Below, piece after piece: positions 3,563-42,216 of a stretch of DNA of 64,000 bases. The translations under genes and the position numbers were made by a program. The stretch is taken from the IMG/VR virus record IMGVR_UViG_3300025881_000006, positions 79,324 to 143,323 of that record; one strand, given 5' to 3'. Under the pieces are notes generated by a model, which worked only from the letters and a program-made list of their open reading frames with translations, had not been told where the DNA came from and did no database searches. This DNA comes from a virus. Position 1 is the first letter of the stretch. Every line of letters begins with the position of its first letter.

Positions 3563-3929
3563 CTTTAGCTTACACGCCAATACGACAATAGGCACAACGT
3601 TCAAGCGTGTTAAGATTAAAGGTATAGTCGATTTCGATACAGCCCGTACGCTAATAGACCCTATAGCACTACATGAGAATATCATCCCTAACCTGCCAGA
3701 CGGTACGTTAGATGACCCACGTCAATACTCTTATCTTAAAGTAGAGTTATTAAATGGTGATACTACGTTTGTAGGTGTTCCTTGGATAGTAGCGGCAAGT
3801 GTGGTCAAGGTTACTTCTGGTAAACTGACTATTGTGATAGGTGATATTGATGTTACTAAGGTGGATGATGTACTGACTGCATTATCTGCTAATAACTTCA
3901 AAGTGACGTCCTCGGACTTCAGTGGATAG
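3522..3929 (+). CDS. conserved phiKZ-like hypothetical protein (gp49-like position), beta-rich
   Basis: ATG at 3522 follows GGAG (3509-3512); lies immediately upstream of the polymerase gene as in phiKZ relatives. Confidence 0.65.
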   Translation: MEIFTGVRIFDTVNFSLHANTTIGTTFKRVKIKGIVDFDTARTLIDPIALHENIIPNLPDGTLDDPRQYSYLKVELLNGDTTFVGVPWIVAASVVKVTSGKLTIVIGDIDVTKVDDVLTALSANNFKVTSSDFSG

Positions 3930-3954
3930 TAAAAAAATAGTGTATAACCAATAC

Positions 3955-3958
3955 TATG
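3955..3958 (+). promoter_or_regulatory. candidate late (nvRNAP) promoter TATG
   Basis: TATGTACTGTAA resembles TATGTAACTGTAA at 14264 and ACTATGTA at 51083; phiKZ late promoters use TATG overlapping the start site. Confidence 0.4.
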
Positions 3959-4090
3959 TACTGTAACAGTAGTTCCGCCAATTCTGCCGTTACGTAAAAC
4001 GACCTGTCGCCAGCGGGAAGTTGGGTCTTCGTGACCTCTATATTTGTCGAACGGACTCTCCCGACCATAAGGTCGGGAGTTGTCTTTCTT
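3958..4090 (+). ncRNA. candidate structured small RNA of about 130 nt
   Basis: GC-richer than flanks; no RBS-led ORF; several hairpins and a long-range CCGTT/AACGG pair; bounded by TATG and a 9-bp terminator hairpin. Confidence 0.35.
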
Positions 4091-4134
4091 ATGCCCTTTT
4101 TTCTTTGATTTGGCTACTTTTCTTTTTATGCCGT
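4058..4134 (+). terminator. hairpin terminator followed by TATGCCCT and TATGCCGT
   Basis: CTCCCGACC-ATAA-GGTCGGGAG stem, T-rich tail, motif copies at 4090 and 4127. Confidence 0.7.
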
Positions 4135-4176
4135 CACCTCAGTTATGACAATATAGTAACAACAAGAGGATTGGCA

Positions 4177-6303
4177 ATGCAACATTTTATCAACGATACC
4201 CATGCATACGGACGTGATTTAAATATAGTAAGTAACTATCATCACGATACCGCTACGTATATAGCTAAGATGACAGGTCAGGATATGGATTACTGTTTAT
4301 CTTGGGTTAAACAACAGACTAGTCCTGGCGGTACTATGGCTGGACATGACCCTGAGCTATTATGTTTATCTAAAGAGACCCCTGGGAACCGTACACGCAT
4401 CCCTATGACGTTCTTACAGTACTTACATGAAGTAGAAGAACGTAAAGCTTTAACTTCACCCACAATGGCTGCCTATTTAAACCCTAACGAGCGTAAGTCT
4501 ATACTGGCTAAGTATATTGATGGTAACATCAAACTACGTTCTAAGGTTAAGAAGCAGATGTTCCAAGACAAAATGGATGGCAATAAGCAAGCTGCTGCTG
4601 ATGGACAGAAGATTCAATCCACCTTTAAGATAAAGAACAACTCACTATCAGGTGCCCACGCCTCTCCATATACGCCGTTGTTTAACAAATCTACTCACTC
4701 AACTCTGACATCTACTTGTCGTAGTGCTACTGGTTATGCTAATGCTAACAATGAACGGTTCTTATTTGGTAATCGACATTACTACGCTTTGAATGTAACA
4801 CTTGAAAATATCATCTCAATTGTTAATCAAGCAGACTATGCATTAATAGAACGGGCTATGGTAGAATATGAGTTAGTAGTACCAAGTATTACAGATGTTT
4901 GTGCAGCTATTAAACGCTCTACTGATTTATATTGGGCTAACTCTGTATGGACAGCGCAGATAGAAGCATTAGTGTCTAAGTTAACCGACATAGAACGTGC
5001 AGCCTATCTCTACACTGCCGATATGTATCACCTACGAGTATTAAACCCAGACATGGTGTATAACTTCCTAGATAAGTTGTCTACTAAGTTAGATACACCA
5101 CATCCAGACCCAGACCCTATTATTAAAGCATTAGATGCTGACTTGATAGCGTATATTGGTATCCTGTGCTCTAAAGAGTTAAATGGTAATACTATCTGGG
5201 ATGCCAAGGATAAGAATCCTGAGAACTATGCAATCATTGCTAATAATGCAGCGAACGTAATAGGTGTGTTAGATAGCTACCGTTTACTGATACGTGCCTT
5301 TTGGGTAACGAACTCACCACCTAGTGCTATTGCATTCTTTACAGATTCAATTCGCCGTGGGGTATTAGTGTCTGATACAGATTCTACTATCTTTACGGTG
5401 CAGGATTGGACTACGTGGTTCTTAAAGGGTATTAAGTTTGGTGAGAAGAATGATGCCCTGTGTGCAGCTATTGTCTATATGGCTTCACAGACAACCATTC
5501 ATTTACTTGCACAACTATCTGGTGCGATGGGTGTTATACCTGAACATATGTCTTTACTATCAATGAAGAATGAGTTTATGTTCCCGACTCTATTGTTAAC
5601 CTCACGTGCTAAGCATTATGCGTCGTATATCTCAGCCCAAGAAGGGAACGTATTTCCTAAGATGGATACTGAGATTAAAGGGGTGGCTTTAAAATCATCT
5701 AAAGCACCACAGCACGTTATTGATAAGTTACACAAGTTCATCATGGAACCTATGGATTTAGTATTAGCCAGTAAGAAGGTATCTGTTAAGAAGATGTTAA
5801 CAGAAGTAGCTGAACTAGAACGTGAGATTGAAAACTCTATCTCAACTGGTAAGGTTGATTACTTGACTACGTCTAATATTAAAGAACGTGAGTCTTACGC
5901 TAATCCTAAGAGTTCTAACTTTATCTACTACGACATGTGGGAAATGGTATTTGCACCGAAGTACGGCCCTGCCCCATTACCACCTTATCGTGCTGTAAAG
6001 GTATCTATGCGTTCAACTAGCGGTACTACACTTCGTAAGTGGATTGATAGTATCGAAGATAAAGAAATGGCAGAACGTTTAAAGACTTGGGTATCTGAAA
6101 ACAATCGCTTAGGTGGTATGCAGCAAATTCTAGTACCTATAGAAGTAGCTGTTACGTCTGGGATACCTAAAGAAATAACGATGAATGCGGATACTCGTAA
6201 GGTAGTGTATTCAACCGTAGAGCCATTCTATTTGATACTTGAATCGTTTGGCGTGTATATGCGTGATAAAAATATCACTAAGTTAGTTAGCGACTTTCAT
6301 TAG
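4177..6303 (+). CDS. B-family DNA polymerase, catalytic half (phiKZ gp50-like)
   Basis: Motif B KIKNNSLSG, motif C VSDTDS, KGV motif; ATG 4177 after GAGGA; no exonuclease or motif A in this ORF. Confidence 0.88.
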   Translation: MQHFINDTHAYGRDLNIVSNYHHDTATYIAKMTGQDMDYCLSWVKQQTSPGGTMAGHDPELLCLSKETPGNRTRIPMTFLQYLHEVEERKALTSPTMAAYLNPNERKSILAKYIDGNIKLRSKVKKQMFQDKMDGNKQAAADGQKIQSTFKIKNNSLSGAHASPYTPLFNKSTHSTLTSTCRSATGYANANNERFLFGNRHYYALNVTLENIISIVNQADYALIERAMVEYELVVPSITDVCAAIKRSTDLYWANSVWTAQIEALVSKLTDIERAAYLYTADMYHLRVLNPDMVYNFLDKLSTKLDTPHPDPDPIIKALDADLIAYIGILCSKELNGNTIWDAKDKNPENYAIIANNAANVIGVLDSYRLLIRAFWVTNSPPSAIAFFTDSIRRGVLVSDTDSTIFTVQDWTTWFLKGIKFGEKNDALCAAIVYMASQTTIHLLAQLSGAMGVIPEHMSLLSMKNEFMFPTLLLTSRAKHYASYISAQEGNVFPKMDTEIKGVALKSSKAPQHVIDKLHKFIMEPMDLVLASKKVSVKKMLTEVAELEREIENSISTGKVDYLTTSNIKERESYANPKSSNFIYYDMWEMVFAPKYGPAPLPPYRAVKVSMRSTSGTTLRKWIDSIEDKEMAERLKTWVSENNRLGGMQQILVPIEVAVTSGIPKEITMNADTRKVVYSTVEPFYLILESFGVYMRDKNITKLVSDFH

Positions 6304-9897: not shown

Positions 9898-9929
9898 GAG
9901 GGGGTAACTCCCCTCTTTTTTTGTGCCGT
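9898..9929 (+). terminator. terminator with TGTGCCGT
   Basis: GAGGGGG-TAAC-TCCCCTC, T-run, motif variant at 9922. Confidence 0.8.
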
Positions 9930-25782: not shown

Positions 25783-25829
25783 ACGGCATAGAAGAGTAGG
25801 TAGCCCCTACTCTTCTTTTTTTGTGCCTT
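25783..25829. terminator. bidirectional terminator with motif on both strands
   Basis: GAAGAGTAGG/CCTACTCTTC between convergent genes; ACGGCATA at 25783 and TGTGCCTT at 25822. Confidence 0.85.
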
Positions 25830-39154: not shown

Positions 39155-39163
39155 GGAACTGTG

Positions 39164-40750
39164 ATGTCAGATGATAAGATTGATGATAATGGGAATGAAG
39201 AAGTCGTTCCCACTACCGATACGGAATCTCTACAGACTGAAGAGACTAAACCAGCTAAGGGTAAGTTGAACGAAGAAGACCATGTTGAACAAACCGAAGA
39301 CGCTTCAGAACCTGACATGACTCGCGGTGTTAACTTTGTAATTGATAGTCCTATCTTTGGCCCTGAAAAAGACGGCGCTCCTAAAGAAGACTTCTATCGT
39401 CTACCTATCCCTAGTATGACACTAGATGATTACGACGAGATGATTGCAAACGTACCACGTGTTGAAGCGGGTCGTTCTGAAGAAACGCAGATATGGCGTG
39501 AGCTATTGGAAACTGCTGCCTCTAACATCACAGCTTCTCGTGACCTTGGTGGTTCTATATTCGAAAGGGTATTGGATAATCCAGCTGCTGATTTTAGACA
39601 ATACGTTAATAGTGAAGAAGGTAGATTAAATGCCAGTCGTCCTAGTATTGCCAATAAGACACCCGGCAAGAAGTTAACAGGTCAAGCTGCTGTATTAAAA
39701 GCACAAGCTTTAATGGGATTGGGGACTATCATTCAAGTTCCTTTATGGCACTCTGGTATCTGGATTAGTATTAAGGCACCCTCTGAGTCTGACATATTAG
39801 AACTTGACCAACGTATTGCTACTGAGAAAGCTGAATTAGGTCGTCGTAGTAATGGTGTGGCATTCTCTAATGCTAACGTATACATCAAGAACTATCTGTT
39901 TAACTTCATCATGGCGCGTGTTTATGATTGTAGTTTGAAAGATTGGACGCCTGATAAGCTACGTGAAACCATTCTAATTACCGACTTCCCATTGTTAGTT
40001 TGGGGTACACTTTGTACAATGTATACTAACGGATATCCGTATAGTCGTCCTTGTATAAACGATACCATGGATTGTCAGCATGTATTGCGTGAAACTATTA
40101 ACGTCCACAAGATGCTTTGGACTGATAACAATGCCATGTCTGAGACGCAGAAGAAGTTCATGTCTAAGCGTAATGTTAAAGTCACACCTGAAGATATAGT
40201 TAAGTATCAAGACGGTTTCGATTTTAAAGACATGAAGGGTGTTGAAATTGGTAACTCTACCTTTGTAGATTTACGTGTACCAACTATCGACCAGTATTTA
40301 ACTACAGGTATGCGTTGGGTGGATAACATCGAAGCGGTGTTTAATAATTCACTAAACAAAGACCTTAAAGGTAATGCTCGTCGTGATTACTTAGCCAATC
40401 AAAGTAAACTTACCTTACTTGTTCAATATGTACACTATATTAAACGGGTGTACTGGGGTGAAGATGCTAGTGATGGTGAAGTGGTAGAGCGTGACCGTGA
40501 AACTATTGAAGACTTGTTCGAAACCTTCTCTAGAGATGAGAAAGTAACTGAACGTGTATTAGAAGTGGCTCGTGGTGTAATAGATAGAACTACATTTAGT
40601 TTGACTGCTATTCCCACTTACAAGTGTCCTTCTTGTAATCACTTTCAATCGGACATTTCAGAGAAGTATCCTGAACTGATCCCTATCGAGGTGGATCAAG
40701 CTTTTTTTATCCTCACCAAACAAAGGCTGTACCAGATGATAAGTCGGTAA
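39164..40750 (+). CDS. conserved phiKZ-like protein, candidate tail assembly chaperone (G-like, zero frame), 528 aa
   Basis: LWHSGIW...KAP, C....C, YKCPSC; slippery T7 run 14 codons before the stop. Confidence 0.6.
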   Translation: MSDDKIDDNGNEEVVPTTDTESLQTEETKPAKGKLNEEDHVEQTEDASEPDMTRGVNFVIDSPIFGPEKDGAPKEDFYRLPIPSMTLDDYDEMIANVPRVEAGRSEETQIWRELLETAASNITASRDLGGSIFERVLDNPAADFRQYVNSEEGRLNASRPSIANKTPGKKLTGQAAVLKAQALMGLGTIIQVPLWHSGIWISIKAPSESDILELDQRIATEKAELGRRSNGVAFSNANVYIKNYLFNFIMARVYDCSLKDWTPDKLRETILITDFPLLVWGTLCTMYTNGYPYSRPCINDTMDCQHVLRETINVHKMLWTDNNAMSETQKKFMSKRNVKVTPEDIVKYQDGFDFKDMKGVEIGNSTFVDLRVPTIDQYLTTGMRWVDNIEAVFNNSLNKDLKGNARRDYLANQSKLTLLVQYVHYIKRVYWGEDASDGEVVERDRETIEDLFETFSRDEKVTERVLEVARGVIDRTTFSLTAIPTYKCPSCNHFQSDISEKYPELIPIEVDQAFFILTKQRLYQMISR

Positions 40751-40763
40751 GGTCTACAGGTGA
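40688..40763 (+). promoter_or_regulatory. putative -1 programmed ribosomal frameshift signal (GAGGTG ... T TTT TTT ... stem)
   Basis: T7 at 40702-40708 in X XXY YYZ phase; -1 frame open 40675-41160; SD-like 40688-40693; CTGTA/TACAG and TCAC/GTGA pairings downstream. Confidence 0.7.
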
Positions 40764-41160
40764 TGTCGCTGCGTCTAGCTTTGGATTGAAGGTACCTCCT
40801 GATAACGATATCAATCGGCTATTAGAAGAGATGCCTAAGTTATCGCCCATGATGGCTCAGATAGCTTTAAGTGAAGCGTACGATATTGCCTACGGTATTT
40901 TTAATCACGATGCAGCTCCAGACCGACCGCTATCAATCATTGCCCATCACCCTAGTGAGGATGTGGTAACCAACGGACCGTTACGTCAACGTATCTATCG
41001 GTTTATTAAGTTTGATATTAGTGATCGATGTGGATTGTCATTGATGGAGTTCTTAGCATTACCTCGTGACCATGTTGAAATGATAATGAAGATAACGCAA
41101 GACATTATCCAAAAAGAGATGGAAGTGCAGGAAAATGCTACTAGTACTACTAAAAAATGA
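40708..41160 (+). CDS. -1 frame extension (GT-like part); the ORF track calls only TTG 40786
   Basis: No ATG or RBS before TTG 40786; frame open from 40675; CGLSLMEFLALP resembles the short helical T domain of tail chaperones. Confidence 0.65.
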   Translation, partial: YPHQTKAVPDDKSVRSTGDVAASSFGLKVPPDNDINRLLEEMPKLSPMMAQIALSEAYDIAYGIFNHDAAPDRPLSIIAHHPSEDVVTNGPLRQRIYRFIKFDISDRCGLSLMEFLALPRDHVEMIMKITQDIIQKEMEVQENATSTTKK

Positions 41161-41184: not shown

Positions 41185-41643
41185 ATGACTATTAAGTTAT
41201 TGGAAGGGGATATCTTTTCCTTTACCAATGCTGTATTAGTCGTTCCTGTTAATACCGTAGGTGCAATGGGTAGTGGTCTTGCTTATCCCTTTAGAGAAAG
41301 GTACCCACTTATGTATAATCGTTATCAGGCTCACTGTAGGTCTGGTAAGCTTAAGATAGGTAACCTTTGGCTCTGTACAGCGTATGGAGATGTGGAGATA
41401 TTGTGTTTCCCTACTAAAGAGGATTGGCGAGACCCTGCCCGCCTGTATTATGTTAAGATGGGCTTAGAGAAGTTTGTAAGAGAACACAAAAGGTTCTTAG
41501 GTAAGACAGTTGTCTTTCCGCCATTGGGTTGTGGACATGGGGGGTTGGCTGAGGCTGACGTGATACCTATCATGCAGCGTGTATTAAAACCAATTAGTCA
41601 TCGTGTCAACATTATTATATTGACCAAATGGAGGAGGGCATAG
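41185..41643 (+). CDS. macrodomain protein, DarG-like
   Basis: GDIF, PVNTVGAMGSGLA, FPTKEDWR, FPPLGCGHGGL. Confidence 0.88.
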   Translation: MTIKLLEGDIFSFTNAVLVVPVNTVGAMGSGLAYPFRERYPLMYNRYQAHCRSGKLKIGNLWLCTAYGDVEILCFPTKEDWRDPARLYYVKMGLEKFVREHKRFLGKTVVFPPLGCGHGGLAEADVIPIMQRVLKPISHRVNIIILTKWRRA

Positions 41644-42216
41644 ATGATTGCCTCTGATAAAACAATCAAAGAGTTAGTACGTGATTTCAATATGATATCA
41701 CCTTTCGTACCTGAGAGTGTTAATTACATTGAAGGTATGGGTAAGGTACCATCATTTGGTTTGTCATGTGCAGGATACGACGTACGTTTAGAACGTAACT
41801 TCAAGTTGTTCTGTAAACCACACATGGGTAAGGTCATTGATATCTTGGATTTTAAAGAAGATGACTTTTGCGAATCCTTTACTGCCGACTCTATTATTAT
41901 ACCACCCGGTGGTTTACTGCTAGGTAATACCGTAGAGTATTTCAAAATGCCTACTAATGTATTGGGTACGTGTGTGGGTAAGTCAACGTGGGCACGGTTG
42001 GGGGGTAGTGTATTAGTTACACCCCTTGAGCCCGGTTGGGAAGGTCAGTTGGTGGTTGAGATTACTAACGGTACTAATCATCCCTTGAAGATATATGCCG
42101 GAGTGGGTGTTGCACAGATACAGTTTGCACTTTTAGACCAAGAACCAGACATGCCTTATAATTCACGTAACGGTAAATATCAGGGTCAACGGGGTGTTCA
42201 GCGCAGCATTTTATAA
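41644..42216 (+). CDS. dcd: dCTP deaminase
   Basis: SFGLSCAGYDVR, GKSTWAR, TPLEPGWEG.L..E, YQGQ.GV. Confidence 0.93.
   Translation: MIASDKTIKELVRDFNMISPFVPESVNYIEGMGKVPSFGLSCAGYDVRLERNFKLFCKPHMGKVIDILDFKEDDFCESFTADSIIIPPGGLLLGNTVEYFKMPTNVLGTCVGKSTWARLGGSVLVTPLEPGWEGQLVVEITNGTNHPLKIYAGVGVAQIQFALLDQEPDMPYNSRNGKYQGQRGVQRSIL

Follow-up and report, generated by a model that had tools for sequence, protein, structure and literature searches.

Within a 64,000-nucleotide (nt) stretch of DNA from a giant marine phage of the phiKZ-like kind (positions 79,324 to 143,323 of the IMG/VR record IMGVR_UViG_3300025881_000006, hereafter the window), a run of seven T residues (T7) near the end of a long open reading frame (ORF) is proposed as the site of a programmed -1 frameshift, which would yield an isoform with a C-terminal extension, here in a gene family that is new and very widespread. 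Comparison of 87 related loci suggests that recoding at this run probably makes the extended form by ribosomal slippage, and recoding by one or the other of two mechanisms, ribosomal or transcriptional, is proposed with high confidence.

The upstream ORF lies in frame 0 of the + strand, starting at 39161 (GTG) or 39164 (ATG) and ending at the TAA codon 40748-40750; its ATG version encodes 528 amino acids (aa) and is identical to the database protein P0003. Codon reading confirmed what the initial annotation of the window had seen here, namely that codons 40700-40711 are GCT TTT TTT ATC and hold an in-phase X_XXY_YYZ heptamer, T_TTT_TTT, at 40702-40708. Eight T7 runs are present on the + strand of the window, and this is the sole one deep within a long sense ORF. 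The annotated -1 frame also withstood an ORF check: it contains no stop from 40675 to the TGA codon 41158-41160, and its first ATG, GTG or TTG past the T run is the TTG at 40786. Moreover, none of the near-cognate starts CTG, ATT, ATC and ATA occurs among the 26 codons of this frame between 40708 and 40785. Translation gave the annotated layout of the shifted product, a predicted protein of 515 + 150 = 665 aa with the junction ...DQAFF-YPHQTK..., for which the predicted tryptic junction peptide is YPELIPIEVDQAFFYPHQTK in the window and FPHLIPIDMLSTFFYFGGLEVK in the phiKZ-like phage FBPa36. The features of the locus are as follows.

39164-40750, + strand: frame-0 ORF, predicted short form of 528 aa (phrog_4585); ORF, homology and AlphaFold2 (AF2) model
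40688-40693, + strand: Shine-Dalgarno (SD)-like GAGGTG, 8 nt 5' of the heptamer; possible local stimulator
40702-40708, + strand: slippery heptamer T_TTT_TTT, proposed -1 shift site of the tRNA-Phe pair; codon phase and comparative data
40708-41160, + strand: -1 frame extension, 150 codons plus TGA (phrog_12109); open frame, homology and AF2
40709-40750, + strand: frame-0 tail past the slip site, ILTKQRLYQMISR plus TAA; dual-coding overlap with the -1 frame
40762-40785, + strand: DVAASSFG, window copy of the -1-frame motif H-V-x-x-P-x-F-G; alignments
40786-40788, + strand: TTG, sole candidate start ahead of the ATG at 40831; not conserved

Conservation of the slip site in phiKZ-like phages

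The upstream protein matched phrog_4585, a PHROG family of unknown function, and the PhiPA3 and 201phi2-1 records give its orthologues as phiKZ gp077, PhiPA3 gp074 and 201phi2-1 gp136. A tblastn search with this protein matched 233 GenBank phage records, all at less than 60% identity, from phiKZ-like jumbo phages of Pseudomonas, Erwinia, Salmonella, Serratia, Klebsiella, Vibrio, Ralstonia, Xanthomonas and other hosts, and a megablast search of the locus against GenBank phages returned no match. The -1 ORF belongs to phrog_12109 (the PhiPA3 gp073 / 201phi2-1 gp135 family), which is always found directly 3' of the upstream gene and is likewise of unknown function in PHROG.

The conservation of the slip site was evaluated in 10 GenBank and 80 IMG/VR loci, which were fetched and analysed by script and gave 87 distinct loci after removal of duplicates, with 27-42% protein identity to the window and a GC content of 0.30-0.60. 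A T run was present at the homologous codons of a conserved xFF(T/I)L motif in all 87 loci, with a length of T5 in 5, T6 in 12, T7 in 43, T8 in 23 and T9 in 4. The frame-0 stop followed the run at a distance of 28-58 nt, except in two loci with 91-97 nt. An in-phase T_TTY was found in 87/87 loci and the full T_TTT_TTN in 75 of them. The interval between the run and the frame-0 stop was free of stops in the -1 frame of every locus, compared with 39/87 for the +1 frame, and the -1 frame stayed open for 150-184 codons (median 166) past the run in all loci except one cut by a contig end. A slippery site with an open -1 frame, which the initial annotation had proposed to look for in orthologues, is thus present across the set. 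Because this layout recurs in 87/87 loci and the window run is the sole T7 deep in a long sense ORF, it is far beyond chance.

Furthermore, codon usage sets the site apart from the remainder of the gene. The TTT:TTC ratio was 150:19 at the site versus 426:812 in the remainder of these ORFs (Fisher p = 3e-43), and in loci with a GC content of at least 0.52 it was 69:7 versus 79:452 (p = 1e-40). The base preceding the Phe codons of the site was T in 77/87 loci, compared with 25% at third positions generally, and other runs of at least six Ts occurred only three times in the 120 kb of ORFs of the 87 loci. The loci are phylogenetically related, and these p-values overstate their independence; the effect nevertheless holds over very divergent and compositionally different lineages. 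By these indications, the nucleotide sequence of the site is under selection beyond the amino acids that it encodes.

One apparent exception was the Xanthomonas phage RTH11 (OQ790161.1), in which the downstream ORF lies in the +1 frame and the annotated 627-aa product carries a meaningless tail overlapping the downstream gene. Its run, at 2789-2795, is T7, as opposed to an equally phased T8 in the close relative LucasX, and is probably a homopolymer length error or a variant. The GenBank records of 11 relatives were also read, and every one annotates two separate genes, with a joined coding sequence in none. A full-text literature search found no paper describing the site in phiKZ-like or jumbo phages; the name "gp77" in papers on Goslar and PCH45 denotes other proteins.

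The downstream frame and the two predicted products

The position of possible start codons in the downstream ORF varied widely. The first in-frame ATG, GTG or TTG past the run was located at +6 to +454 nt over the loci, often deep in the conserved domain; it lies more than 400 nt into an ORF of about 480 nt in three loci (L031, L049 and L060) and at +255 in FBPa36. Alignment of the -1 peptides revealed the conserved motif H-V-x-x-P-x-F-G, with F26 and G27 each at least 90% conserved, and in 73/86 sequences the first candidate start was at or past this motif. In the window, the motif copy DVAASSFG is located 3' of the frame-0 stop and 5' of any start codon, and it ends right before the TTG. An exhaustive profile search with the extension domain found 1640 representative clusters. 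Among the best 150 of these, the called proteins were 97-186 aa long, homology reached their first residues, and their N-termini mapped to profile positions 1-57; UniProt entries of the family range from 74 to 182 aa. Such scattered N-termini are, as judged from these alignments, the signature of an arbitrary start choice by gene callers.

A closer comparison was possible with L094, a relative whose protein is 85% identical to that of the window. The two sequences differ at 2 positions over 40680-40725, and GAGGTG and the T7 run are identical. The TTG at 40786 of the window reads TTA in L094, and a 3-nt indel 5' of the TTG position keeps the -1 frame. In the stretch from the frame-0 stop to the first ATG, the substitutions favour third positions of the -1 frame (5:3:9), and the ratio is 26:16:59 in the rest of the ORF. 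On the available alignments, the downstream ORF is without a conserved start of its own.

The short form is, by similar reasoning from alignments, also a real product, because the frame-0 tail past the run is conserved over the family (consensus TLLxQR...) and its end can be aligned to the natural end of the T4 gp26 chain. In the overlap at 40709-40750, all five differences between L094 and the window fall on third positions of frame 0. In an hhalign comparison, the family C-terminus ...CPxC...IP.D....FFTLL aligned with the gp26 end ...CPECGK...EFFELL-stop, and the FF dipeptide is therefore taken to be ancestral. The FF of T4 gp26 is encoded by TTC TTT and carries no T run; the T run is, on this comparison, a feature added in the jumbo-phage lineage. 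Taken together, the comparative data strongly support the initial annotation in its claim that a programmed -1 shift makes two proteins here, both of them predicted products.

Nucleus-forming phages of the phiKZ-like group have drawn intensive study and serve as therapeutic candidates. Yet this core gene pair of theirs appears in annotations as two hypothetical genes, and the start given to the second is arbitrary and often cuts the gene short. Recognition of the frameshift would correct the annotation of probably hundreds of genomes, as the 1640 clusters of the domain family suggest. The predicted 665-aa protein would escape proteomic searches in their present form, and recoding of the run to give the short form only or the long form only would offer a simple genetic handle on the role of the protein.

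Mechanism of recoding and rival explanations

In the proposed mechanism, ribosomes on a gp077-like mRNA would reach GCU UUU UUU AUC, where the tRNA-Phe on the UUU codons would, in a fraction of cases, slip back by a single base, with perfect re-pairing on the U run. The slipped ribosomes would read the -1 frame for 150 more codons to give the 665-aa long form, and the remaining ribosomes would stop 13 codons later to give the 528-aa short form. The N-terminal body would be common to both products and the conserved helical C-terminal domain would be present only in the long form; in annotations, this domain appears as a small gene of its own. The ribosomal nature of the shift is what we infer from these data.

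Known frameshift systems offer parallels. A -1 frameshift is reportedly conserved in tail chaperone genes, lambda gpG/gpGT being the familiar case; the P2 genes E/E+E' are said to shift at TTTTTTG, and gene 10A/10B of phage T7 is said to shift by -1 at G_GUU_UUC near a stop codon. As in lambda G/GT and P2 E/E', the shift proposed here is located near the 3' end of the upstream ORF and would produce a short form and a C-terminally extended form with a common N-terminal part, and the T-run heptamer is of the P2 type. As in 10A/10B, the slip would occur in the gene of a large protein, a few codons 5' of its frame-0 stop, with tRNA-Phe on a U-rich site, and would extend a minority of the molecules at the C-terminus. 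Unlike 10B, which is a capsid protein with a short extension, the protein studied here is apparently not in the virion and would gain a conserved folded domain of 150 residues.

The stimulators suggested in the initial annotation fared unevenly. GAGGTG is present 8 nt 5' of the heptamer as described, and in the window its duplex with the anti-SD sequence has an energy of -7.4 kcal/mol versus -1.7 for controls in the same ORF; it may raise efficiency locally, in the window and in L094. The annotated downstream stem CTGTA/TACAG does appear in the minimum-energy fold, but it is not significant, as the 82 nt past the run fold no better than shuffled sequences (-19.6 kcal/mol, z = -0.41).

Evidence at the RNA level was also sought. 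The window phage is uncultured, and its stretch was found only in marine-metagenome DNA runs, with no RNA run listed. RNA-library contigs from three studies span a phiKZ-like IMG/VR locus (L093) and contain the T7 unchanged and without gaps. Minor variants are dropped in such contigs and DNA is possibly present in such libraries, and the contigs show only that the dominant RNA of an L093-type locus is not edited at the run. A raw-read RNA run (X28, 2026) contained no reads of the phiKZ-like locus.

Transcriptional slippage, in which a phage or host RNA polymerase would stutter on the template A run and add one U to some transcripts, would result in the same 665-aa protein, and we consider it an unlikely source of the long form. 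It would be favoured by a pure homopolymer of up to nine Ts (T8-T9 in 27/87 loci) and by the fact that a ribosomal stimulator is conserved nowhere in the family. In addition, phages of this kind use their own multisubunit RNA polymerases, a subunit gene of which is located 1.6 kb upstream of the frame-0 ORF start, and the product would be indistinguishable from the ribosomal one by mass spectrometry. However, 17 loci have only T5-T6, and we regard such runs as too short for efficient transcriptional slippage. The unedited T7 in the RNA-library contigs of the three studies also speaks against this mechanism, with a minority of edited transcripts still possible, as does the in-phase T_TTY in every locus, which ribosomal slippage needs; the latter point is not decisive, since the FF dipeptide also fixes the phase.

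Ordinary initiation of a second gene, at the TTG 40786, at the ATG 40831 or by reinitiation past the upstream stop, with the T run as mere conserved Phe-Phe codons, is very unlikely. It agrees with the separate annotation of the two genes in 11/11 GenBank records of relatives, with the ancestral FF in a PF12322-like C-terminus and with the ATG that soon follows the run in some loci, for example at +6 or +54 nt. However, it leaves unexplained the T-preceded TTT TTT in GC-rich, TTC-preferring genomes (69:7 vs. 79:452), the openness of the -1 frame from the run onward in 87/87 loci and the H-V-x-x-P-x-F-G motif 5' of the first possible start in most loci; moreover, the first start comes 400-454 nt into the ORF in L031, L049 and L060, and the window TTG is lost in L094. 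Homopolymers are error-prone, and a sequencing error or a recent frameshift mutation could in principle have split one gene of 665 aa, as the scrambled annotation of RTH11, one T off from LucasX, illustrates. This explanation is the least probable of all and, being at odds with the comparative data, can almost be dismissed: 87 independent assemblies and isolates have the same -1 offset; the conserved frame-0 tail has its stop at a conserved distance and is homologous to the natural T4 gp26 end; for a phiKZ-like phage, several studies give the same run length in DNA contigs and in RNA-library contigs; and the close relative L094 has an identical T7.

Several observations weigh against programmed ribosomal slippage itself. 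The SD-like element is not conserved, as the mean anti-SD duplex energy 5' of the site over the 87 loci is -2.28 kcal/mol versus -2.20 for controls. A downstream structure is not conserved either: over the loci, the 60-nt windows 3' of the run have, if anything, less structure than control windows (-11.6 vs. -13.5). A stimulatory element is common, yet not obligatory, at -1 frameshift sites; because no stimulator is conserved here, the efficiency of the shift is probably low, and it may be low or depend on a further factor. In 12/87 loci the full heptamer is replaced by T_TTY only, where re-pairing of the P-site tRNA-Phe is possible. The internal ATG at 40831 could also yield a free C-terminal fragment, and natural in-frame fusions of the two parts were found neither among 40 relatives of the upstream protein (484-573 aa) nor among the best 150 relatives of the downstream domain.

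Predicted structure, function and gene neighbourhood

In the AF2 model of the 528-aa protein (predicted local distance difference test [pLDDT] 79.7, predicted template modelling [pTM] score 0.81), residues 1-54 are predicted to be disordered and the rest adopts a confident alpha/beta fold. The upstream protein has four conserved Cys residues. The extension domain (pLDDT 77.7) was modelled as small and all helical, with a long terminal helix. Neither part matched Pfam or NCBIfam at E values up to 1, and this includes PF12322 for the window protein; a PDB sequence search with both parts at the same threshold, in a copy containing the phiKZ portal/adaptor entry 9xpe, also returned no match. In a Foldseek comparison of the 528-aa model with the PDB and AFDB Swiss-Prot, no match reached an E value below 0.7. 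Among 48,161 chains compared by VIA-align, the best Z was 6.1 for the large protein, from single helices, and 4.8 for the extension domain, from generic helical hairpins, and neither result names a fold; the structural matches of this domain were otherwise its own family only.

Comparison with BFVD was more informative. Past its own family, the 528-aa model matched about 20 viral models of about 250 aa, with E values from 2e-5 to 6e-3 and TM scores by target of 0.46-0.60. They are named "baseplate hub assembly protein, bacteriophage T4-like", "baseplate hub subunit" and "baseplate hub assembly chaperone"; both sides of this comparison are predictions and the names are automatic. A solved structure of the T4 gp26/gp51 family was not among the matches of the model. 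The BFVD matches also included homologues of 686-687 aa from the Erwinia phage phiEaH2 and from "Myoviridae sp. ctLnO19", in which phrog_8054 coordinates place the extra length at the N-terminus, with no fusion to the downstream domain.

The identification of the locus as a tail chaperone of the lambda G/GT or P2 E/E' type, as proposed in the initial annotation, was not borne out on homology, size or gene neighbourhood. No match to any tail-chaperone family was obtained from Pfam, NCBIfam or PHROG, and no fold similarity to these families was found. The predicted parts of 515 + 150 aa, in contrast to roughly 140 + 140 aa in lambda, are about fourfold too large. The gene does not lie between the tail tube and tape-measure genes, being located instead beside non-virion RNA polymerase and nucleotide-metabolism genes. 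The suggested structure prediction against tail assembly chaperones gave a divided answer: no gpG-like chain was among the Foldseek and VIA-align matches of either model, an absence that does not exclude the fold, but models of T4-like baseplate hub assembly proteins were matched. As with lambda G/GT, the proteins here are apparently non-virion, and they may act in the assembly of the tail or baseplate.

A relationship of the upstream protein to T4 gp26/gp51 (PF12322) is probable but unproven. PF12322 (T4_baseplate) matched 3 of 40 family members weakly, with a best E of 0.0034. The NCBI name for the gp26/gp51 family is "gp26 family baseplate hub assembly chaperone". In T4, gp26 (3803-4429, - strand) and gp51 (4480-5229, + strand) are both full-length PF12322 members (216 and 178 bits) and hence paralogues, and gp51 has about 48 extra C-terminal residues past the shared domain. 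The short member (gp26, 208 aa) and the longer member (gp51, 249 aa) parallel the short and long forms predicted here; however, the upstream protein is 2.5 times longer than gp26, and T4 has neither the T run (TTC TTT) nor a frameshift, its two forms being separate genes. The profile of the extension domain gave no signal against T4 gp51 or gp26, leaving the idea that the extension is the C-terminal tail of gp51 without support.

From the resemblance in fold to T4 gp26/gp51, we infer that the upstream gene may encode a non-virion baseplate-hub assembly factor, to which the long form would bring an extra binding domain; an assembly-chaperone role related to that of gp26/gp51 is plausible on these models. 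In the 201phi2-1 record, a mass-spectrometry note is attached to the neighbouring gp138 and none to gp136 or gp135, and proteins of the gp136 and gp135 families are apparently not in the virion. A cryo-electron microscopy preprint on the phage Goslar assigned all hub and inner-baseplate density to other named proteins (10.64898/2026.04.21.720040). Some results count against an assembly role. The hhalign comparison of the upstream family (A1) with T4 gp26 was weak, with 30% probability and E 5.5e-4 over the C-terminal 39 columns, and that with the gp26 family alignment was weaker still (8% probability, E 0.004). The Churi orthologue gp256 is listed among proteomically defined early-expressed proteins (PMC11849849), which is unexpected for a tail-assembly factor. 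The location among genes for the non-virion RNA polymerase, a helicase and nucleotide metabolism points in the same direction.

A broader scenario, which we regard as rather unlikely, would have chimalliviruses replace the paralogous hub-assembly chaperones of T4, the short gp26 and the long gp51, by one recoded gene. The short:long ratio would then be fixed by a bare U run without an RNA stimulator, and the site could be tuned by the phage, for instance through its ribosome-binding proteins or the stuttering of its own RNA polymerase. If true, a core gene would carry a recoding switch under phage control throughout the family. If the link to T4 gp26/gp51 holds, frameshift-made tail-assembly chaperones would extend from tape-measure chaperones to baseplate-hub chaperones.

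The neighbours of the pair in the window encode the non-virion RNA polymerase beta subunit, a phrog_5038 member, a macro-domain protein, a dCTP deaminase and dihydrofolate reductase (DHFR). The same layout was found in relatives, again in a setting of non-virion RNA polymerase, helicase and nucleotide-metabolism genes. The macro-domain protein (152 aa, 41185-41643, + strand) directly follows the gene pair; it belongs to phrog_335, labelled "phosphatase", and there is a weak PF01661 match in the relative. The dCTP deaminase gene is located at 41644-42216 in the window and encodes 190 aa, whereas the corresponding gene of L094 (4495-5608) is called at 537 aa or more and consists in Pfam of DCD, LAGLIDADG and DCD domains, which suggests an intein or homing-endonuclease insertion absent from the window copy. 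Among the other T7 runs of the window, those at 9916, 25816 and 35385 (+ strand) lie outside long ORFs, have the common context CTCTTTTTTTGTGCC / CTTCTTTTTTTGT and resemble terminator U-tracts, with an identical 19-nt context at 25816 and 35385.

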